In this document: positions 642 through 15,173 of the stretch, piece after piece | Layout: the number at the start of each line of letters is the position of its first letter | Numbering within the stretch: position 1 is the stretch's first letter | Sequence record: DRR723986_3489 | DNA: 20,000 nucleotides | Reading direction: 5' to 3' (one strand) | Notes under the pieces: model-generated | Database searches by the model: none | The model's input: the letters and a program-made list of their open reading frames with translations, nothing else | What the model was told of the DNA's origin: nothing | Made by a program: the position numbers and the translations under genes

Positions 642-3600
642 TTAATTGTCGATGATTACACACTTTCCTTCCTGCACATCCTGTTCCACACTTTTATATT
701 TCACGTCAGATTTGGTAGTTCCATTTGTGTATTGAACAGAAACTTTGTCATTTCTTCCGTAGGCTTTATCAGATTTTCTAGGAGCAACTACCTGCGGAGC
801 TGGTCTTCCAGCATTTGATGCTGCGACTGCTGCACGGTTTGCACCTGGGTTTAGAGTGCTTCCTGCCTCAGCTTTAGAAGCTTGTACTTGAGGTTCTGAA
901 GTATGTTGAGGAGCTGCTGCATGCACATGATTTGGATCTTGCTTAGGCAAGTCTGCCCTAGTCAAGAATGTGGTCATGTCCTCATTCAGCTTACCGATGA
1001 AGCGTTTGAACATTTCAAATGCCTCGAACTTGTAGATCAACAGCGGATCTTTTTGCTCATAAACGGCATTTTGTACCGACTGCTTTAGATCATCCATATC
1101 TCTCAAATGCTCTTTCCAGTTTTGATCAATGATAGCAAGTGATACATTTTTCTCTATCGCTCGTACTAGCTCTCGACCTTCAGAGTTAATTGTCGCTTCA
1201 AGATTTGCAACTACTCCGATTTGTTTGATTCCATCAGAAATCGGAACCATGATATCTTTCACAGTAGCTCCTCTTTCCTCCTGCACTCTCTTGAAAATCG
1301 GAAGAGCTGTACTCATCATTGTTTCGCTTTTCTTCTGATAAGCCTCAAAAGATGCAGTATATAGCTCTTGGGTCAATTGACCTGCGTCCTTGGTTTTGAG
1401 GTCATTTTCAGTGACATTATAATCTATACCCAAGGTAGTGAATACGTTCATTCTGAAATCCTCAGGATCTGCTGTTGATTTGCCCATATCCACTAAGCCT
1501 TCACATACATCATAGAGTACGTTCAGAATATCCAGCTCAAGTCTTTCTCCTTTCAGCGCATTTCTTCTTCTCTTGTAAACGACTTCACGCTGTGAGTTCA
1601 TCACATCATCGTACTCAAGTAGTCTCTTTCTGGTGCCAAAGTTGTTTTCCTCCACCTTTCGTTGCGCACGTTCGATAGACTTGGAAATCATGCTGTGCTG
1701 AATCACTTCTCCTTCTTCAAGGCCCATTCTATCCATCAACTTTGCAATACGATCGGAACCAAATAGACGCATCAAGCTATCCTCTAGTGACACGAAGAAC
1801 TGGGAAGAACCCACATCACCCTGACGTCCAGATCTACCTCTCAGCTGTCTATCAACACGACGGGATTCGTGGCGCTCTGTACCTATGATGGCCAAACCGC
1901 CAGCTTTTTTAGCTTCTGGAGAAAGCTTAATATCTGTACCACGTCCAGCCATGTTAGTTGCAATAGTAACCGTGCCCGCTTGACCGGCAATGGCAACCAC
2001 ATCAGCTTCTCGAGCGTGCTGCTTTGCATTCAATACCTGATGTGGAATCTTCTTTAAAGTAAGCATTCTACTCAGTACCTCTGAAATTTCTACCGAAGTG
2101 GTACCCACCAAAACAGGTCTTCCAGCTGCAACTAGCTCATTGATTTCGTCACCGACAGCGTTGAATTTCTCTCGAACAGTCTTGTAGACTTTATCTTCTC
2201 GGTCAGCTCTGATAATCGGCTTATTGGTAGGTATTACTACTACATCCAATTTGTAAATTTCCCAGAATTCCCCAGCTTCCGTTTCCGCTGTACCAGTCAT
2301 ACCAGCCAGCTTATGGTACATTCTGAAATAGTTCTGAAGGGTAATGGTAGCGTAAGTCTGCGTGGCATCTTCCACCTTCACATTTTCCTTCGCTTCGATG
2401 GCCTGGTGTAATCCATCAGAATAACGACGACCTTCCATCACACGACCAGTCTGCTCATCTACAATCTTCACTTTTCCATCTACCAAGATGTACTCAGTAT
2501 CCTTCTCAAACATACAGTATGCTTTAAGAAGTTGATTTACAGTATGGATTCGTTGTGCTTTTACGCTGTAATCTTTGATTGCCTCCTCTTTACGGACAAG
2601 CTTTTCGGTATCTGAAAGACCTTCTTCTTTCTCCAAATCAGCAATCACAATTCCGATATCAGGGAGTATGAAGAATTCTGTGTTTTCATTTTTAGTAGTC
2701 ATCGTCTCGATACCACGATCTGTCAGATCGACTACGTTTGTTTTTTCATCTATAGTAAACAAAAGTGGCTCATCTGCCTCTGGCATTTGACGCTTATTGT
2801 CCTGTAGGTAATAATTTTCTGTCTTCTGTAGGATTACTCTAATGCCTGGTTCAGAAAGGTATTTGATCAATGGCTTATATTTTGGCATACCACGGAATGC
2901 ACGGAATAAAGCCAAGCCTCCCTCTTTTTCATTGCCATCAGCAAGCATTTTCTTAGCCGAGGTCAAAAAGCCCTGAACCAACTTGCGTTGCTCATCAACA
3001 AGTGTAGCTACTCTTGGCTTCATGTCATCAAACTCGTGAACATCGCCTTTAGGCACAGGACCAGAAATAATCAATGGCGTTCTCGCATCATCAATCAAAA
3101 CGGAATCGACCTCATCAATCATTGCAAAATGATGCTTGCCCTGAACCAAATCTCCGGCTTCACGAGCCATGTTGTCTCTCAGGTAGTCAAATCCAAATTC
3201 GTTATTGGTACCATAAACGATATCTGATTTATATGCCTTCTTTCGACCGGCTGAATTTGGAGTGAATTTATCAATACAATCCACCGTCAATCCGTGGAAT
3301 TCAAAAAGTGGCGCATTCCATTCAGAATCACGTTTTGCCAAATAATCGTTTACAGTAACAATGTGTACACCACGTCCTGCAAGCGCATTCAGGTAAGCAG
3401 GTAGAGTCGAAACCAACGTTTTACCTTCACCTGTGGCCATTTCGGCAATTTTACCTTTGTGAAGCACCATACCACCGATCAGCTGAACATCGTAGTGAAC
3501 CATGTCCCATACAACTTCAGAACCGGCGGCCATCCATCTATTATGCCAGATCGCCTCATCTCCTTGTATTTCTACATTCTGCTTACTTGCAGATAGCTCT

Positions 3601-6470: not shown

Positions 6471-6500
6471 AAAAATAGCACCGAGTGTTTACTCGATGCT
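6471..6500 (-). terminator. Intrinsic terminator after the lipoprotein gene
   Basis: Minus strand AGCATCGAGT-AAAC-ACTCGGTGCT-ATTTTT: 10-bp stem with one G-U pair and a U tract, about 28 nt after the stop. Confidence 0.75.
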
Positions 6501-6528: not shown

Positions 6529-9048
6529 CTATTTCAACGTGATAACTATATTTGCTTGCCCTCCTGCTGCCAAAGATCCGGCGATCCACCCAGGAATAGC
6601 GTCTGGACACTGCCCACTACACCAAGTCGCTCCTAAAGAATAATAATAACTGTTTTGATAAATATAATATCGTGTGTCACCAAGTGGCCATCCGTAATAA
6701 CTTGGTGGGTACCCTCCATTTAACCAAGAAACGGTTCTCCCCTCATAGGGATGTTTATAGGACGTTTTGAATCCGTAGGTTGTCACGGTATAAGATTTTG
6801 CATCTGGATTGACCGGGACAATCACTAGTGCATGTACACCATTTGAAAATGCACCGGGTACTACTTCATATAAATAATCCTTCGCCGTCACAGGGACATT
6901 AAGTATGATTTTCTTCGGATCGTTATTGACTTTCACTTTCCCTATCACTTCTTCTCGTAGGACCCATTCCCCTGAACCAGGAACTCTGAAATAAACACTG
7001 GCTTTGATCTCTTCCTCTCCTTCTATGATATCTCCATCCAATGCTTGATAATTAATCGCATTGCCTCGAGTAGTTGCAAATGTGTTTTTTCCGTCAAACA
7101 TTCCGTACTTCCCTTCTGTGGACCATTCCACTTTGTACTCTAAGGCTGATGTACTGACAATGTCATTGATATTATCACTTCGCTCCAAGTAAAGTCGCAC
7201 GGAATGCTTCTCCTTCCCGCTAAGCGTAATGCCATCTGGCTTCATCAGCAGTTTTTGCTTTTTGACGTTTATCGTTGCGGTAGCGTCACCTATCAATGAT
7301 AAGTCAGCACCTTTTTTAATAAAAACTTCTACCGTAACTGTTTCAAAATTATTTTCAGCTAGGTCGGCCGGATTTACCTCACTCCTGAAATTGACAGTGG
7401 CTGAAGTTGTTTCTATTTTAGTGCCTTTGGACGCTCCGGCTGCAATCAAGCCATATTTACCAGTAGTGGACCAAACGTAAACAAACGACTGTCCATCTGA
7501 CAGCTGTGTTTGCGTGTCCGCTTTCAATGCCACGTTAGCAAATGGAACAGTAGATTCTTTTCCAGGATTAATTTTGACTTCAGATCGACGCGCTTTTGCT
7601 GTGAACTCCACAATCCGGTCTGAAAGGATCAGCTCAGTGGTGAGTTTGCCCATATCCAAAAGTTTCACGCACATCTCTACCGCCTTGATTACTTTCAGAT
7701 ATTTTTCAACAGCAGCAGCATTAGTATAATCACGATTCAAATCAATCCAAGTAGGCTTATTCAGGTTTTTATACTTATCTACAACTTTTTGAATAAATAA
7801 TTTTTGAAATTCTTGGCCTCCCTTATCAACCATAAATTTCACGAATTCTTCAATCCCCTTTTTAAAGTTGCCACTTAGAACTAGATCCATGATTTGTGGA
7901 GACTGAGAAATTGTAGCTTCGAAAGCCTCAAAAGCAAAACCAGCATCTCCAGTTCCTTTGATCTCAGAAATTATCTCAGTAATAATGGGTAGAGCATAGT
8001 CCACATAAAATTGCTTTAGCATCAATTTCTGCCAAGCAGCATTTTCTTCAGTGGTCATGGTGAGAGAACCGGCAGGCCTAAAAGCAGAACCAACTATGCG
8101 TACCTTATAAATCGCCTCATCTTCATTATCTCCCAAAGACAATAAAATCGGCTCTGATTCCTTTTTTGCATATTCCATTCCCTTACCAGAGATCTGATCC
8201 ACAATAGTACCAAGCGTACTGCTAAATCCTTTGGTACCATCTACGTCATGAATAGATTTAGCTGCTTGAGTTGGCCCAATTGTCGGGATCAAAATCACCT
8301 CTTCTTTAGATCCTTTTGCCTTATAGGCAGTTTTATAGATAAATGCTTTCCCTAGTCTACGGTAGTGATTGGCTATTTTTATATTCAGGAAATCATGTTC
8401 GAAAATTTGCATACCGCTTTGAAAACCAGTAGGGTCCACGTTAATTTGCCGCGCTCGCATATCCAAAACTTCTCCATCCTTACTATACTCAGTCAGCAAA
8501 GCTGTCAAGTCCTGCTCAAACTTGAGATTTTCGAGATAAAGTAAATCGTTCTTAATTCCTGTAGCCACTTTTGCCTTAAATTCCTCATAGCCAGGCAGCG
8601 GCATAGATGGGTTCAAAAATTCAGTGACCACCGCATCGGGTAAGTAAAATACTCCAGCTCCCAAGTAGAATAGCGCCTGGGCGGTAGTCTCAGCATTTAT
8701 AGATTTATTTTTTTCGTTGAGAACACCCATTAAAATCAACTTATTCGACTCATCGAATAAAAAAGCCAATCTAGTTACACTATCTGGCAAAATTGCTTTG
8801 GATTTGCCATCAGCAGCTACCGGAAATGTCATCAATCCCGTAGAGACCGTTGCCTTGGATAAATCAAAATTGACACCTTGAGGGAATGAAACTGCTACAT
8901 CCACAGTTTGTGCAAGTGGGGAGGATCCTCCAGTAGGAGGTTTTGTAGGATCTGGATCAGGGTCTATAGGACTTTCCGGATCGCTACATGCAAATGCCAG
9001 TATCGAAAAAAGGATGCAAATCCATTTAGTGAGTTGTAAATTTTTCAT
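6529..9048 (-). CDS. Large uncharacterised lipoprotein (839 aa), probably surface-exposed, with two tandem beta-rich repeats
   Basis: Lipobox ILAFA-C21, then acidic SDPES and a PDPDP/PPTGGSS linker, a helical central region, and duplicated WST(T/E)GKYG-containing beta-rich units. Confidence 0.85.
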   Translation of the reverse strand: MKNLQLTKWICILFSILAFACSDPESPIDPDPDPTKPPTGGSSPLAQTVDVAVSFPQGVNFDLSKATVSTGLMTFPVAADGKSKAILPDSVTRLAFLFDESNKLILMGVLNEKNKSINAETTAQALFYLGAGVFYLPDAVVTEFLNPSMPLPGYEEFKAKVATGIKNDLLYLENLKFEQDLTALLTEYSKDGEVLDMRARQINVDPTGFQSGMQIFEHDFLNIKIANHYRRLGKAFIYKTAYKAKGSKEEVILIPTIGPTQAAKSIHDVDGTKGFSSTLGTIVDQISGKGMEYAKKESEPILLSLGDNEDEAIYKVRIVGSAFRPAGSLTMTTEENAAWQKLMLKQFYVDYALPIITEIISEIKGTGDAGFAFEAFEATISQSPQIMDLVLSGNFKKGIEEFVKFMVDKGGQEFQKLFIQKVVDKYKNLNKPTWIDLNRDYTNAAAVEKYLKVIKAVEMCVKLLDMGKLTTELILSDRIVEFTAKARRSEVKINPGKESTVPFANVALKADTQTQLSDGQSFVYVWSTTGKYGLIAAGASKGTKIETTSATVNFRSEVNPADLAENNFETVTVEVFIKKGADLSLIGDATATINVKKQKLLMKPDGITLSGKEKHSVRLYLERSDNINDIVSTSALEYKVEWSTEGKYGMFDGKNTFATTRGNAINYQALDGDIIEGEEEIKASVYFRVPGSGEWVLREEVIGKVKVNNDPKKIILNVPVTAKDYLYEVVPGAFSNGVHALVIVPVNPDAKSYTVTTYGFKTSYKHPYEGRTVSWLNGGYPPSYYGWPLGDTRYYIYQNSYYYSLGATWCSGQCPDAIPGWIAGSLAAGGQANIVITLK

Positions 9049-9071
9049 GGTAAAAGTAGTTTATACTTCTC

Positions 9072-9102
9072 CATCGAAATCTTTTACAATAGGTCATCAA
9101 AA
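9072..9102 (-). promoter_or_regulatory. Candidate ECF-sigma promoter, copy upstream of the lipoprotein
   Basis: Minus strand TTTTGATGAC-N16-CGATG; CGATG ends 23 nt before the ATG. Confidence 0.7.
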
Positions 9103-9143
9103 CTTTAAAAAATAATTTCCATATAAAAACTTAGGCATTCCTC

Positions 9144-9881
9144 TTACTTGTCTTCTTTCTCCAATATGGAAATTAGCATTGTTGACTCTTCTCGATCAGC
9201 GGCATCGAGCAAAGGAATAGCTGCTTCAAAGTTACCTTCTTTGACCATAATCAGTCCTAAGTACCAATTGGCATCCTTGTAAAAATAACTTTCCTCTGTG
9301 CCCGTGATATTGCCTAATAGCTGCTTACTTTTTTGAAAATCATCTAATTCCAGATAAGATAGTCCTAAGAAGTAATTAAGTGTATCACTTGAAGGATTAT
9401 CGGCTAATAACTTGTCCCATCGATTCACAGCTTCACTGTATTCACCTAATTTGAAATCCACCATACCTCTGGCAAATTCATAATCGCCTGCTGATGACAT
9501 CGTAGAAATCAGCCCTGGATCGGTATGATAGTAGGACTGAAAAATCTTTTCCTGAGGGGAAGTGGATTGAGTTGCCCACCAGATTCCAGCCAGAATAAAC
9601 AGACTGATAGAGGCCGCTATTGCCCAATACATCAGGTGAATCTTGTTTTTTTCTGGTTGGACCTTTTCTATGTCCATATGGAATACATTCAGTTTTTCCT
9701 TCAATGCCGCTCGTTGAATGCCCTCTCTGAGATCTCGAATTTCTTCCACATTGATTCTAAAATCTTCCTCCTGACTCAGACGGGCTTCCACTTTTGCTAT
9801 ACTAGTGGAATCTAGATTCCCATCGAGGTAATTTTCAATCAACTCAAAGTCTTCAGACGATATTTGCGCTTTATTATTCAA
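9144..9881 (-). CDS. Putative anti-sigma factor: N-terminal helical domain, single TM, C-terminal TPR domain
   Basis: IENYLDGNL...VEARLSQEEDF N-terminus resembles anti-sigma domains. TM YWAIAASISLFILAGIWW. TPR-like YFLGLSYLEL and ANWYLGLIMVKEGNFEAAIPLL. ATGA overlap with the sigma gene. Confidence 0.7.
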   Translation of the reverse strand: MNNKAQISSEDFELIENYLDGNLDSTSIAKVEARLSQEEDFRINVEEIRDLREGIQRAALKEKLNVFHMDIEKVQPEKNKIHLMYWAIAASISLFILAGIWWATQSTSPQEKIFQSYYHTDPGLISTMSSAGDYEFARGMVDFKLGEYSEAVNRWDKLLADNPSSDTLNYFLGLSYLELDDFQKSKQLLGNITGTEESYFYKDANWYLGLIMVKEGNFEAAIPLLDAADREESTMLISILEKEDK

Positions 9882-10450
9882 CTCTCTTTTTCTCCTTCCT
9901 GTATGATATTTTTAAGCTTCTGCATGCAGCGATATTTGTTGTTTTTGGCCGTTTGGGCTGTCCAACCCATCGCCCTTGATACTTGAGTCAACGATTCTTT
10001 TTTGTAATAAAACCTTGTCAGAAGTTCATGACAATCCTTGCCAATTTTCTGAAAAGCATATTCTATTTTTAAATAGTACGCTTCCTTATCATGTACTTCA
10101 AGATTCGGAAAATCGGTTATATCTCGCTCTTCAAGGGGTACTGTCTTTTTTGTTTTAGACGATCTTAAGTGATCCAACCATTTGTTCTTAGCAATTTGAA
10201 ATAGGTAGCCAACGAGGGCAGATTCATTTTCCGGTGCAAATTTCCCCGATCTGATATTCGTCCAGAAAGAAATAAATGCATCCTGAAATATATCTTTTGC
10301 CTGATCTTCACTACCACTATTTCTCAGTATAAAATGCTGCACTTTTGGAAAACCTAACTTATATATCGACTGTAACACAACATTATCGTTATTGATAATG
10401 GCCTTAGTGAGTTCCTCCTGTGAATAAGAATTAAAAATATCCTTTGGCAT
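9878..10450 (-). CDS. ECF-type RNA polymerase sigma-70 factor
   Basis: Region 2 (AKDIFQDAFISFW...YLFQIAKNKWLDHLR) and region 4 HTH (CHELLTRFYYKKESLTQVSRAMGWTAQTAKNNKYRCMQKLK), no region 3. Start is ATG 10450 or TTG 10468. Confidence 0.93.
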   Translation of the reverse strand: MPKDIFNSYSQEELTKAIINNDNVVLQSIYKLGFPKVQHFILRNSGSEDQAKDIFQDAFISFWTNIRSGKFAPENESALVGYLFQIAKNKWLDHLRSSKTKKTVPLEERDITDFPNLEVHDKEAYYLKIEYAFQKIGKDCHELLTRFYYKKESLTQVSRAMGWTAQTAKNNKYRCMQKLKNIIQEGEKES

Positions 10451-10598
10451 ACTTGTTACAATTGCCAAGAAGATACAATTAAATGTATTTCAGCTCAAGA
10501 ATATTTGAGGAAATAGATCAATAGACATATGCTCAGCTTCTAAATATTAGGATTGAGATTATTACTTCCCTTCACAATTAAGATTGAACTCATTATAT

Positions 10599-10626
10599 CA
10601 TCGGCCAAAGGCAAAAATGTCATCAA
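10599..10626 (-). promoter_or_regulatory. Candidate ECF-sigma promoter, copy upstream of sigma/anti-sigma
   Basis: Minus strand TTGATGAC-N15-CGATG. Its TGA (10625-10623) is the CHAT stop codon. Confidence 0.65.
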
Positions 10627-13600
10627 CCCTTGGGATTTTTGATTAGTTTAAAAACAAACCAACTTCCAATCAAACCAAGAAGAATTAAAGTGACTATCCA
10701 ATACATAGGAACCGGTTTCTCCAACGCTAAGGGCTCAGTAGATCCCATGACAATTAATCCTGCCCAGAAATTCGGAGCTAATGCGCGACTTTCGGCAGTA
10801 GATAGGTAATTCAGCTTCGCGACTCTTAATGCTTGATCTTTAGTCAAGCCCTTGGCAAGATTTTCATAAAAATCCATTGCAATATCTGAGCTAGCATGTT
10901 CGTCTATTTTCCAGATACCCATCAGCATGCTTTTACTTCCTGCATAGTTAAAAGCATGCGCCAGCGAAATCATCCCCTCGCCTGGTGAATAGGAAGGTTT
11001 TCCTGATTCACACGCAATGAGTACCGCCAATTCCGAACTCAAATCCATCGCATAAATATCCTTCACGAAGAGCGAGTTCTCGTCTTCTGGATGATTCGTT
11101 GACTTCGCGAAAAATAAACGAGAGAGATTAGGACTAATATTATTCGATTCTGCATGAGTTCCGATATGGATAATCTTGTGCTTTCCGGCCTCGAGTTTAA
11201 ATCTATTCACAGTTGATTTTTCATCTGTAAAAATCCTACCTCCAAAAATTTTAGAAATCCCTGCGACAAGTTGTTTGGTAAAAGGTTGGGGCAAAAGAGT
11301 CAGATAAGCACGATCAAGGGTCAGCGAATCTTTCACTTCGCTGAGGTAGCTCTCTTTCATTACATCAAAAAACCCGGGAGCAAAAGCCACGAATTCGGAT
11401 TCATACGAAGCTGATTTCCTACCATAATCAAACAAAAGTGTGCTATAATGGTAAGAAAAGCTATGCGATGCAATCAGGCTTTTTGTCGCTAATTCTGAAT
11501 AACGATGAATGCGTTGTGGGGTCAAAATCTCAAAACTCAAATTAAATAACAGACCATCCGGAACGATCAGCACATGCTCAGTAGTTATGTAGGGCTCTAA
11601 AGGCATCCAAAGTCGGTCATATAGCTGCTTCAAATCAGCGGTCGATTGCTTTTCATCAGACCAATTGTCTTGCAATCGGTTCAAAATCGTTGAAAGGCCT
11701 TCAAACTCCAACTCTATAAGGCTCTTCTGATCTTGCTTCATTACTAATGCCTTCAGCTCCGTTCCAACAAAAAAATATCGGATCACAGAAGTGTTATCAG
11801 GGATTGATTCCTGGATTTTATCAATAGATCTTTCCAAACTTGCGTACCTGAAATCATAATAGGTTGAGTATTGAGTCCTTAGGTTTTCCACAAATCTCTC
11901 CCATTCATGATTCGCTAGGAGATAATTTTGCACCCCATCTACTTCATTATTAAGAGCATTTTCAAGTTTTGATTTTAATGCTTCTTCTTCCTCAAAAATC
12001 TCAATTGGCACATTTGCAAAGCGCAGCTGTCCATTTTGTTCTAGCCTCAGACGGATCTTTTGATATATCCCAGATTCGTGTAAGCTTAGCAAATCCTCAA
12101 CATAAGACTCGTCGTTGGTCTTTTGATAAAGCTCAAAAGTCAGTTGCTTCAAGAAATCAAAATAATCCTTATTGTCCTGAATCAGCAGATTTACATCATC
12201 CTCGGATTCCAAAAATGTTTTCCTCCTCTCCAGAAATTCAACTCCTTCGTCTAATTCACTTACCAGAGACTTCAAAAAGGCTGGACTTCTTTCCGTTTCC
12301 AAGTAATATTGAGACTTCACTTTAAGCAAAATTGCCTGAGGCTTTTTCAGATTTACACGGATAGAGTCCAGTCTTTCGGTTTGATTTACAAGATGCATTT
12401 TCAGGATTTGCAATGCCTCTATACTCAGATTTTGAGCCTTTCTGTAATTTCCAGAAATGAATGAAACATCTGCCATGCTCAATGATTGATCAAAGAGTTG
12501 GAGACTAGTCCCATTTCCAATGGTATTTAAATATTGATATGCCTTAGAGGCAGTACTTTCCGCTAGACTTTGGTTTCTATTTTCGGCTAAAAACTTACTA
12601 TAGTTAGTTAGAAACTCGAGGTAAACAAGGTCAAAATCACCGCCAAGTACATTTTGGTATAGTGCATCTGCCCGTTGATAGTATGTCAAAGCTAATTCAT
12701 CATTTCCCTCATAATCTTCCACTCTCGCCAAGGCATTCCATCCGTCAGCCTCCCAAAAGTCTCGGTTTCCAGCAATTTGCTTCAGTCCATCCAAACCCGT
12801 CTGAAGGATAGCTCTGGCATCTTCCATTTCAAACATTTCATAGTATAGCTGACCCAAGAGAATTTTGGAATTGATTACTTCTTTATTGGCTAACCCAAAT
12901 GAACTCAACTTCTTAGAATGAGCATATTCAAGCAGATTTTTAGCTTTTTGAAAATTCCCAAGTTCTTTATAAATGCCTCCAAGGTTATCTACCGCTTGTA
13001 GGTAAAACTCTAAAGTTTTATTCTTTTCCGCTGGATCACTCAATGAATCTTGATAGAAAACAAGATTACTGAGCACCTTTTCCATAGACTGAATTGCTTG
13101 GCTCATATGGCCTGAAGCACTCTGAACCCCGGATAGATTATTGTAAATCAGGGCTGTTCGATAATACTTATTTCTTGGAGTTTGGTTCAGCAGAGAGATC
13201 GCCTCAAGGCATTGTTCATAATAATACTCTGCTGAATCTAACTTGGAAGAAAAATAGGAAAGGTTGCCCAGATAGCTATTTGTGAGGTAAACCGACTCTG
13301 GATCTGGGTCTTTTAGGAGGAAATCAAGTGCCTCATGGAGATGCATTTTGGCAGATTCCAGATCCATTCGATTGATAGAATAGGCGCCAAGATTCATCTT
13401 GATCTTTCCCTTTTCCTTATCACTAACTACTCCTTGGCTCTTTATCGCAGCATCGAATGCTTTGAGTTCAAACTGATATGCTGATTCTGTGTCTCCAAGG
13501 TATTCATACCAATTGGCCGCAGTCATCCAAAGGTCTTTTTGATAGATAGGGCCAGGCATTTGCTTTTCCCATCCCAAAATCAAATCATCCATCATTTGAA

Positions 13601-13850
13601 TTGCCACTGGATAAGCATGAATCTCTAGTAATGCTCTTCCATATACTTCCAAATAATCAGGTATTACTTCCTGTTGCTTATTCTTTACTACTTCTGAAAG
13701 AACTTGCTTAAGCTCTTTCAACGCAACCGCTGCTTGATCCATGGAGATCAAACTATCTAAAGACTTTATTTTCGAATCTAAAGTCTGCCCTTCTACCAAA
13801 AAAGACAAAAGAACGAAAAGTAAAGAAGTTGCATATTGAAGAGGTTTCAT
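10623..13850 (-). CDS. TPR-CHAT domain protein (caspase-hemoglobinase fold protease), signal peptide plus C-terminal TM anchor
   Basis: Signal peptide MKPLQ...SFLVEG|Q, many TPR-like helices, CHAT motifs LIVPDGLLFNLSFE, IIHIGTHA (His899), VLIACESG (Cys947), GEGMISLAHAFNYAG, WKIDE, PNFWAG, and a hydrophobic C-terminal helix followed by KLIKNPKG. Confidence 0.93.
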   Translation of the reverse strand: MKPLQYATSLLFVLLSFLVEGQTLDSKIKSLDSLISMDQAAVALKELKQVLSEVVKNKQQEVIPDYLEVYGRALLEIHAYPVAIQMMDDLILGWEKQMPGPIYQKDLWMTAANWYEYLGDTESAYQFELKAFDAAIKSQGVVSDKEKGKIKMNLGAYSINRMDLESAKMHLHEALDFLLKDPDPESVYLTNSYLGNLSYFSSKLDSAEYYYEQCLEAISLLNQTPRNKYYRTALIYNNLSGVQSASGHMSQAIQSMEKVLSNLVFYQDSLSDPAEKNKTLEFYLQAVDNLGGIYKELGNFQKAKNLLEYAHSKKLSSFGLANKEVINSKILLGQLYYEMFEMEDARAILQTGLDGLKQIAGNRDFWEADGWNALARVEDYEGNDELALTYYQRADALYQNVLGGDFDLVYLEFLTNYSKFLAENRNQSLAESTASKAYQYLNTIGNGTSLQLFDQSLSMADVSFISGNYRKAQNLSIEALQILKMHLVNQTERLDSIRVNLKKPQAILLKVKSQYYLETERSPAFLKSLVSELDEGVEFLERRKTFLESEDDVNLLIQDNKDYFDFLKQLTFELYQKTNDESYVEDLLSLHESGIYQKIRLRLEQNGQLRFANVPIEIFEEEEALKSKLENALNNEVDGVQNYLLANHEWERFVENLRTQYSTYYDFRYASLERSIDKIQESIPDNTSVIRYFFVGTELKALVMKQDQKSLIELEFEGLSTILNRLQDNWSDEKQSTADLKQLYDRLWMPLEPYITTEHVLIVPDGLLFNLSFEILTPQRIHRYSELATKSLIASHSFSYHYSTLLFDYGRKSASYESEFVAFAPGFFDVMKESYLSEVKDSLTLDRAYLTLLPQPFTKQLVAGISKIFGGRIFTDEKSTVNRFKLEAGKHKIIHIGTHAESNNISPNLSRLFFAKSTNHPEDENSLFVKDIYAMDLSSELAVLIACESGKPSYSPGEGMISLAHAFNYAGSKSMLMGIWKIDEHASSDIAMDFYENLAKGLTKDQALRVAKLNYLSTAESRALAPNFWAGLIVMGSTEPLALEKPVPMYWIVTLILLGLIGSWFVFKLIKNPKG

Positions 13851-13940
13851 TTAGATAAGAGGCTTCTTTGAAAAAAGGATGCAAATTATATCCCTTAAAA
13901 GTTAGAAATAATCCGGGTGAAAAATGCCCAGACAAATTCA

Positions 13941-13970
13941 CATCGGTCAAAATGAATAAAGTCATCAAAA
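13941..13970 (-). promoter_or_regulatory. Candidate ECF-sigma promoter, copy upstream of the CHAT gene
   Basis: Minus strand TTTTGATGAC-N15-CGATG, about 90 nt before the CHAT ATG. Confidence 0.65.
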
Positions 13971-13984
13971 AAGTATTAAAACAC

Positions 13985-14011
13985 AAAAAGCCCCACATTT
14001 CTGTGAGGCTT
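13985..14011 (-). terminator. Intrinsic terminator after tRNA-Leu
   Basis: Minus strand AAGCCTCACA-GAAA-TGTGGGGC-TTTTT: GNRA loop and U tract. Confidence 0.8.
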
Positions 14012-14014
14012 ATG

Positions 14015-14098
14015 TACCAGGAGCGGGAATCGAACCCGCACGGCCTTACGGCCACAAGATTTTAAGTCTTGCGTGTCTACCTATTCCACCATCCCGGC
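14015..14098 (-). tRNA. tRNA-Leu (anticodon TAA)
   Basis: GCCGGGA/TCCTGGT acceptor stem, CAAGA-CTTAAAA-TCTTG anticodon arm, long variable arm GGCC-GTAA-GGCC, GGTTCGATTCC T-arm. CCA not encoded. Confidence 0.97.
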
Positions 14099-14139
14099 TT
14101 CACTCCAGCTTTTTGGAGCTACTGTTTTCTTGAAACAAG

Positions 14140-14375: not shown

Positions 14376-15173
14376 TCAAAATGGATAACTAGATAATATT
14401 TTTACCATTTCTCCCAAATTTCGGGCATTGAGCTTTTTAAGGATGTTTTTCCGATGAGTCCCTACAGTATTCACTGAAATATTTAAGTGTGCAGCAATTT
14501 CCTTGGACTCTTTACCATCCAGAATCAGATCAACAATTTCCTTTTCCTTTTTGGTGAGAGAAACCACACGGCTATTTGGAGAGTTTTTACTCACAAATAC
14601 TCTTGTTTCATCTGCTTTTTGGTAGGAATAATTCCAATCGTACCCACCAGATTTAGGTGGATTGTGCATTTGCACTATAATATGCAAGTCCATCGCAAAA
14701 TTCCCCGCTGAATCAATTAAATAAGGTCTTACTTTTCCCAGCATCCAAGAAATGGCCTTCGTCTTTCGATGAACCCAACGCGTAGTGTATGAAAATTCAA
14801 AGGTATGCTTCTCAGCCAAAGTGAGTTGATGGAAGTTATCGAAAACAATTTTCTGAAAGCGGAAAAGCTCCTCTCTATCTTCAGGATGTATCATTGCAAA
14901 GGAAGTTTCCATTCCTTGCGAACGAAACATAGCTGCTGGATAGCCTGTCAACTCCTCTACATTGCCCGTGAAAAAAGCCAAACTCAATTTTCTATAGTCA
15001 AAGCAGGCAATCGTAAGACCTTCCTGCATGCCAATATTCTGGCTCAATTGCTCGAGTTGCTCCATTTTATGGTCTTCTTCTGGATGGTCTTGAAACTCCT
15101 GCTCTTTCCACTCCTGAAAAAATTGAGTGTATTTATTTTGCTTCCGCAAATCTTTTAGCAATACTTTATCCAT
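14376..15173 (-). CDS. PAS-domain / LuxR-type HTH transcriptional regulator
   Basis: PAS motifs NVEELTGYP and MIHPEDRE, and C-terminal LTKKEKEIVDLILDGKESKEIAAHLNISVNTVGTHRKNILKKL. Confidence 0.9.
   Translation of the reverse strand: MDKVLLKDLRKQNKYTQFFQEWKEQEFQDHPEEDHKMEQLEQLSQNIGMQEGLTIACFDYRKLSLAFFTGNVEELTGYPAAMFRSQGMETSFAMIHPEDREELFRFQKIVFDNFHQLTLAEKHTFEFSYTTRWVHRKTKAISWMLGKVRPYLIDSAGNFAMDLHIIVQMHNPPKSGGYDWNYSYQKADETRVFVSKNSPNSRVVSLTKKEKEIVDLILDGKESKEIAAHLNISVNTVGTHRKNILKKLNARNLGEMVKILSSYPF

Follow-up and report, generated by a model that had tools for sequence, protein, structure and literature searches.

A two-box motif, TTGATGAC-N15/16-CGATG, is present in three copies in the window analysed here, that is, the whole 20,000-nucleotide (nt) stretch of sequence record DRR723986_3489. 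We think that this motif is the cognate autoregulatory promoter read by the extracytoplasmic function (ECF) type sigma factor that is encoded at 9878-10450 of the same stretch, and we give this reading a probability of roughly 0.85. The copies, named P1, P2 and P3 (sites 1, 2 and 3), precede the gene of a TPR-CHAT protein, the sigma gene and the gene of a lipoprotein, respectively (Table 1). The sequence-only reading of this DNA had already proposed that such a promoter ties the protease and the lipoprotein to the sigma factor, and the proposal is supported by the uniqueness of the motif, its conservation, its placement, the manner in which it follows the CHAT gene, and its background frequency in genomes without an orthologue of the sigma. 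The feedback loop takes in the anti-sigma gene too, which is an addition to the earlier reading. Judging from the comparisons below, the adjacent sigma factor would be the protein that reads the motif, and transcription would be expected to start about 6–8 nt after CGATG.

The pattern matches the minus strand at 13968-13941, 10626-10599 and 9100-9072. These are exactly the three matches of the window, and 0 of 200 dinucleotide-preserving shuffles contained any match. Reading of the minus strand from 8900 to 14100 showed that the coordinates, strands and letters previously given for the three sites are all correct, and the claim that all copies are in the sense orientation holds for 3 of 3 matches. 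The spacers had been described as 15–16 nt long and unrelated in sequence; the lengths are right, but the sequences are not wholly unrelated, since the spacers of P1 and P2 both start T-rich (TTTATT and ATTTTT), like the family consensus.

Genome-wide scans were performed on the nearest genome, G001, which has 5 Mb and contains 100% of the sampled words of the window, with the reversed pattern as control for all pattern scans. The strict pattern has three matches in G001, which are P1–P3, and the reversed control has 0. A looser form, GATGAC-N14-18-CGAT, is not enriched in this genome (42 matches vs 38 for the control), and GATGAC-N15/16-CGATR gives no clear enrichment (6 vs 3). As to further regulon members in G001, each of the three CGATR-pattern matches found away from the locus falls within a long open frame. 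The sequence-only reading had put forward a genome-wide scan as a check, and the result is that the motif is not frequent at random positions. In the window's genome the regulon appears limited to the module locus, as far as the motif can show.

A search with an alignment of seven sigma orthologues provided 80 related loci (1.11 Mb), which include Algoriphagus, Cyclobacterium, Aquiflexum, Mariniradius, Indibacter, Mongoliibacter, Chitinophagaceae, Flavobacteriaceae and Prolixibacteraceae, and also a few metagenome bins labelled Balneolaceae or Chlorobiota. The motif recurs in these homologous loci, whose comparison had been another of the checks proposed earlier: the strand that carries the sigma gene has 145 copies of GATGAC-N15/16-CGAT and the opposite strand 14, with 1 and 0 matches for the reversed control, and sigma-strand matches are present in 70 of the 80 loci, which come from several Bacteroidota orders. 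Position statistics were calculated on the 142 sites that remained once three matches lying within sigma coding sequence had been removed. The position before GATGAC, not selected by the pattern, is T in 89% of them; GATGAC is followed by A (60%) and then by TTTT (83, 84, 80 and 64%), and CGAT is followed by G (78%) or A (19%), then by T (65%) and A (56%). The resulting consensus is tGATGAC(a)TTTt ... CGATGta, and the spacer measures 15 nt at 100 sites and 16 nt at 42. In our reading, the −35 element would be TGATGAC(A)TTT and the −10 element CGATG(TA). Two conserved boxes separated by a spacer of fixed length, 14–17 base pairs (bp), are what passages of PMC6061681 describe for ECF promoters, and the 15/16 nt found here lie within that range. 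The same boxes emerge when 7-mers are counted, without bias, over the 400 nt preceding sigma in 78 loci: TGATGAC (36 sense vs 13 antisense) and CGATGTA (18 vs 4) are both among the most strand-biased words.

Autoregulation implies a copy upstream of the sigma operon, which is P2 in the window; among 72 related loci, 54 have one no more than 1600 nt before the sigma gene, and in 30 the distance is at most 400 nt. P2 overlaps the stop codon of the CHAT gene, the TGA at 10625-10623 being the first TGA of TGATGAC, and the same overlap is seen in six of nine loci compared (L076, L079, L080, L081, L088 and L092, of the Algoriphagus type). A serine-hydrolase gene sits between promoter and sigma in those six loci, a gene that the window does not have. 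A different arrangement is found in L097, L104, L108, L117, L131, L136 and L143 (Chitinophagaceae and Flavobacteriaceae), in which an opposite-facing second copy lies at ~100-250 nt from the sigma-proximal one; this suggests divergent promoter pairs.

For each of the 159 matches, the product of the next open frame was taken, and these products were clustered. The sigma factor itself is the largest cluster (30), followed by a 406-residue PF00144 serine hydrolase (26), homologues of the window lipoprotein (16), an unassigned family of 391 residues (11), CHAT (10) and a PorV/PorQ-like protein (8). Smaller groups correspond to a subtilase with a type-IX sorting domain and to a Peptidase_S74 protein. 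Examples of motif-preceded genes are those of a PF00144 protein (beta-lactamase / D-aminopeptidase-like) at L072:6715-7935, a PorV/PorQ-like barrel at L074:13453-14661, a subtilase with type-IX sorting domain at L121:12591-14462 and a Peptidase_S74 protein at L121:14626-16227. Signal-peptide-like N-terminal segments are present in all representatives inspected of the downstream groups, and the outputs are lineage-variable and all of them predicted exported proteins. Non-sigma targets have their start codon at a distance from CGAT that clusters at 22–33 nt, and for sigma this distance is mostly 60–240 nt; in the window, 23 nt separate the end of CGATG in P3 from the lipoprotein ATG (9048). The strand bias (145 vs 14) and the spacing of 22–33 nt place the motif in the sense orientation just upstream of coding regions, as corresponds to ECF promoters.

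The motif follows the CHAT gene when this gene leaves the sigma operon. CHAT was found in 75 of the 80 loci. In 60 of them the anti-sigma gene immediately precedes it on the same strand, and the motif is present within 500 nt upstream of CHAT in 0 of these 60. CHAT lies elsewhere in the other 15 loci, ten of which have a strict copy of their own in front of it, and two more (L072 and L073) have the one-letter variant GGTGAC-N15/16-CGATGT. In the remaining three CHAT directly follows a lipoprotein gene, with the motif before that gene in two. The window belongs to the class with displaced CHAT, and its copy is P1.

The specificity of the motif for this sigma factor was also studied in 61 family genomes, taking E <= 1e-47 as the limit for an orthologue. 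Clear sigma orthologues (43–52% identity) are present in seven genomes, including G001, and a weaker relative (39%) in G039. Regions of 15.6 kb were compared around the six other orthologues and the G039 relative: the usual order there is [~400-residue gene]-sigma-anti-sigma-CHAT-lipoprotein, and TGATGAC-N15/16-CGATG stands on the sigma strand before the ~400-residue gene, the sigma gene and the lipoprotein gene. Five orthologue genomes that were scanned whole have 3–5 strict matches each, and 0–2 for the reversed control. Over all 61 genomes the strict pattern has 71 matches vs 31 for the control. The seven orthologue genomes hold 23 matches, of which 16 share the strand of the sigma gene and lie no further than 10 kb from it; the other seven correspond to one per genome. 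In the 54 genomes that lack an orthologue there are 48 matches, or 0.9 per genome, which is the background level. At the G033 locus (L068, at ~5440, 6990, 11575 and 14345) TTTTGATGAC is kept, and CAATG or CTATG replaces CGATG at three of the four sites; the −10 box may have shifted specifically in this lineage.

The sigma gene appears to have two promoters, one of them resembling the housekeeping type. The housekeeping promoter of Bacteroidota is TTG ... TAnnTTTG, with the TTG about 17–22 nt upstream, and lies close to the start codon. The element TTG-N20-TATCTTC of the window departs from this consensus at two positions. In the related loci, TATCTTT is the most strand-biased 7-mer upstream of sigma (39 sense vs 4 antisense in 78 loci). 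Among the 38 loci with an exactly known sigma start, TAnnTTT is found ~24 nt before the ATG in 33, and in 7 on the opposite strand; the complete TTG-N17-22-TAnnTTT is present in 28 of 38. A housekeeping-type promoter next to the sigma gene would account for the greater distance of the ECF-type copy from the start of sigma than from the starts of other genes, and would provide the basal sigma and anti-sigma that the feedback loop needs.

Several observations weigh against the motif being the promoter of this sigma factor. The core letters of the boxes are GAC and CGA, not the AAC and CGT that passages of PMC6061681 give as usual for ECF promoters. The spacer of P3 lacks the T-run. P1 and P2 are 90 nt (from the end of CGATG to the CHAT start codon at 13850) and ~150 nt (upstream of the sigma ATG) away from their start codons vs the 22–33 nt of most targets. 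The presence of GATG in both boxes makes the motif also readable as a direct repeat. Ten of the 80 loci, several being short contigs, have no strict match, and 18 of 72 have none in the 1600 nt before the sigma gene. In one orthologue genome, G033, strict matches are absent, and the variants that it does contain read CAATG or CTATG at the −10 box. Finally, on first look G001 contains 22 sigma-like candidates, so that formal room is left for a paralogue as the reader of the motif.

The last point leads to the alternative that survives best, namely an ECF-type promoter read by a paralogous ECF sigma and not by the adjacent one. Besides the number of candidates in G001, the two-box geometry would be compatible with it, as it is common to ECF promoters of different groups (passages of PMC6061681). 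We think that this alternative is improbable: motif and sigma clade occur together in several orders, the motif stays at background in the 54 family genomes that have paralogues but no orthologue, and it is almost absent from 22 ECF-paralogue loci (76.6 kb), whose 2 matches both lack the flanking T and the T-run, compared with 6 matches in seven orthologue loci (24.8 kb).

Somewhat less probable still is that the boxes form a direct repeat of (T/C)GATG, 22–23 bp apart, serving as operator for a tandem DNA-binding regulator, for example a response regulator. The GATG shared by the boxes and the LuxR-PAS gene situated just upstream (14376-15173) would fit this possibility, but each box has flanking letters of its own, with strong and consistent differences between the two (T-GATG-AC-A-TTTT vs C-GATG-TA), and the distance to the start codons suits a −10 element. 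Moreover, the only regulators conserved with the motif in the related loci are the sigma factor (80/80) and the anti-sigma-like protein (78/80). The LuxR-PAS neighbour was rejected as regulator because it adjoins the module in only 6/80 loci, and its gene is probably unrelated to the module. That the three copies are due to chance or are a non-functional repeat, such as a duplication remnant, has nothing in its favour beyond the small copy number in one genome and is hardly credible in view of the shuffles, the restriction to three matches in G001, the conservation across genera and orders with its strand bias, and the different spacers of P1–P3, which mean that the copies are not duplicates.

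As regards the proteins of the module, the sigma factor matches the ECF superfamily model TIGR02937 of NCBIfam with 66.1 bits (cut-off 42.9) over residues 37-181 of 190, and Pfam detects region 2 only (Sigma70_r2). The listed open frame starts at TTG 10468, and there is an ATG at 10450. The most conserved segments of the alignment are YLxQIAKNKWLD and WTxxTAxNxKYRC, which we take to be those contacting the −10 and −35 elements. A sequence search of the Protein Data Bank (PDB) with the sigma factor gave only SigL and RpoE at E <= 1e-3. The start of the next gene overlaps the sigma stop codon, and this gene adjoins sigma in 78 of 80 related loci. According to hydropathy and Pfam, its product is formed by a cytoplasmic N-terminal segment of ~80 residues, a membrane helix (81-104) and a periplasmic TPR domain, and we infer that this 245-residue protein is the anti-sigma factor. 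Residues 1-80 contain zero cysteines, and a CHCC zinc site therefore cannot form.

The CHAT protein has TPR repeats and a CHAT domain at 739-1037 (Pfam PF12770, E 4.1e-40), and hydropathy indicates a signal-like segment at the N-terminus and a membrane helix at the C-terminus (1047-1071). The His-Cys pair of the domain is preserved, with residues H895, H899 and C947 invariant in nine orthologues; one of the two histidines (H895 or H899) is presumably the catalytic one. With these features the protein looks like an active protease facing the periplasm. Its structure model is good in the TPR part and poor in the CHAT domain (predicted local distance difference test, pLDDT, < 50 at 886-983). The top Foldseek matches of this model are TPR-CHAT chains of separase and craspase (Csx29), with low TMq values of 0.16–0.29, and no DdvA entry is among the matches listed. 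The lipoprotein was assigned to no Pfam or NCBIfam family, and its Atlas scores were <= 0.78. Its model (pLDDT 76.8) consists of Ig-like beta-sandwich domains and a helical domain, for which Foldseek against the PDB gave only generic Ig-like/adhesin matches (TMq <= 0.18).

The mechanism that we propose starts from a module bounded by terminator-like hairpins, which the three copies would split into three units: P1 would drive TPR-CHAT, P2 sigma plus anti-sigma, and P3 the lipoprotein. Basal amounts of sigma and anti-sigma would come from the housekeeping-type promoter beside the sigma gene. Once the membrane anti-sigma is inactivated, free sigma could transcribe from all three copies, and its release would raise together the sigma (positive feedback), its inhibitor the anti-sigma, the protease and the lipoprotein. 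The protease itself may be the input, cutting the periplasmic TPR domain of the anti-sigma, or an output.

By analogy, the closest studied system is DdvS/DdvA of Myxococcus. In Myxococcus xanthus, DdvS has four local GTAA-n16-CGT promoters, confirmed by 5' rapid amplification of cDNA ends, reporters and chromatin immunoprecipitation (ChIP) (passages of PMC6061681). One copy precedes ddvS-ddvA, and the promoters are silent unless the anti-sigma is removed (passages of PMC6061681 and PMC11506125). For the periplasmic TPR-CHAT of DdvA, self-cleavage has been proposed but not demonstrated, and fused DdvA-type proteins are reported, in passages of PMC11506125, only from Myxococcota and one Comamonas. 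Both systems have an ECF sigma, a single-pass anti-sigma and a periplasmic TPR-CHAT element, as well as multiple copies of a private promoter clustered near the sigma gene, with sigma and anti-sigma driven by one of these. The differences are also clear. In the window the TPR-CHAT protein (1075 residues) is separate and membrane-anchored instead of being fused to the anti-sigma (245 residues); the anti-sigma lacks, in residues 1-80, the cysteines of the CHCC zinc-binding three-helix bundle, and has a small periplasmic TPR domain of its own. In addition, the sigma factor is not close to DdvS by sequence, the PDB search having returned SigL and RpoE only; the targets are exported envelope proteins and not CBASS or CRISPR genes, and the letters of the boxes differ.

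A tentative extension of this comparison, which we regard as possible though on balance unlikely, is that the module is a split, trans-acting counterpart of DdvA. TPR-CHAT would then act as a site-1 protease that cuts the TPR domain of the separate anti-sigma, giving a latching, all-or-none envelope response with a small, lineage-variable exported set as outputs. Since a promoter of the sigma factor also stands before the protease gene, activation would feed forward on the protease as well as on the sigma. If this held, the outputs would be the Ig-like lipoprotein here, and the serine hydrolase, the PorV-like barrel and the subtilase in relatives.

Concerning the sigma factor itself, the prediction of autoregulated promoters per group by comparing the upstream regions of clade members is established practice in the ECF classification 2.0 (passages of PMC7826278). 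The motif described here is alike in its two boxes, fixed spacer and position upstream of the sigma operon and neighbouring genes, and was approached with the same clade-comparison logic. No numbered ECF group was assigned to the sigma factor, and the main text of PMC7826278 has 0 mentions of CHAT. Passages of a review (PMC8999054) link CHAT genes to ECF54, said to be without anti-sigma; the window locus encodes an anti-sigma-like protein and does not fit that description. A precedent for CGAT, and not CGT, as −10 box is SigD (ECF40) of Mycobacterium abscessus, for which passages of PMC13537577 give GTAAC(A/G)-N16-CGAT from ChIP with sequencing (ChIP-seq), with 72 sites genome-wide. The −35 box ending in AC and the fixed spacing are further likenesses to this motif. 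SigD differs in belonging to another phylum and sigma family, in its −35 box (GTAAC vs TGATGAC), in a spacer that is 1–2 nt longer, and in a regulon that is not local.

TPR-CHAT proteases are also known next to sigma factors in craspase, the type III-E CRISPR system with the TPR-CHAT protein Csx29, Csx30 and an RpoE-like sigma. As in the window, genes of a TPR-CHAT protease and of an ECF-like sigma occur together, and Csx29 chains appear among the Foldseek matches to the CHAT model. The match of the window sigma to the type III-E sigma model is weak, at 32.5 bits for a cut-off of 100. There are no CRISPR genes here, and the protease is predicted to be exported and membrane-anchored, not cytoplasmic. 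The literature search for a CHAT domain with a periplasmic anti-sigma gave DdvA and craspase only. Among the publications listed for ECF and CHAT, none deals with Bacteroidota by its title or the start of its abstract, and no promoter motif was seen in the literature listing for ECF03 and promoter. The module was not described in the literature searched, the scope of which ended at the main text of PMC7826278, so that a motif prediction may already be published in its supplements or among the per-group motifs of the ECF Hub.

In kind, the motif would be an ordinary autoregulated ECF promoter, of a known class, and the module to which it belongs is widespread in Bacteroidota and uncharacterised. 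In our opinion, its value is that it would define the regulon by sequence, and makes a Bacteroidota module formed by an ECF sigma, a TPR anti-sigma and an exported TPR-CHAT protease directly testable. The three mutable promoters could be used for reporter assays in cultured relatives. The protease would stay under control of the sigma factor even when a genome rearrangement moves the CHAT gene. Since protease and anti-sigma are separate proteins, anti-sigma proteolysis initiated by CHAT, as proposed for DdvA, could be tested more cleanly here.

Table 1. Positions of the promoter copies, the genes of the module and its boundary features in the window
Feature	Position	Strand	Letters or size	Basis or remark
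P1	13970-13941	minus	TTTTGATGAC-tttattcattttgac-CGATG	spacer 15 nt
P2	10626-10599	minus	TTGATGAC-atttttgcctttggc-CGATG	spacer 15 nt
P3	9102-9072	minus	TTTTGATGAC-ctattgtaaaagattt-CGATG	spacer 16 nt
Element of housekeeping type (Bacteroidota sigma-A-like)	10469..10498	minus	TTG-N20-TATCTTC	TA 25 nt before sigma ATG
TPR-CHAT protein	10623..13850	minus	1075 residues	Pfam CHAT and TPR families
ECF-type sigma factor	9878..10450	minus	190 residues from ATG 10450	TIGR02937, Pfam Sigma70_r2, alignment
Anti-sigma-like protein	9144..9881	minus	245 residues	Pfam TPR families, hydropathy, alignment
Lipoprotein	6529..9048	minus	839 residues; signal peptide, Cys21	neither Pfam nor NCBIfam match
Terminator-like hairpin after lipoprotein gene	6477..6500	minus		terminator scan; downstream boundary of module
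Terminator-like hairpin after tRNA-Leu	13988..14011	minus		terminator scan; upstream boundary of module
tRNA-Gly and tRNA-Leu	14014-14098 (tRNA-Leu)	minus		tRNA scan; upstream of module
LuxR-PAS (PAS-LuxR, GerE) regulator	14376-15173	minus		Pfam; upstream of tRNA genes

The flanks of the module are housekeeping genes, with MutS and the LuxR-PAS regulator upstream, and MscS, DapF and SecA downstream. At the upstream boundary, the order tRNA-Leu, terminator hairpin, motif and CHAT is common to the window (13941-14098) and to the Algoriphagus jejuensis locus L073 (~3200-3450), in which the −35 box reads GGTGAC.

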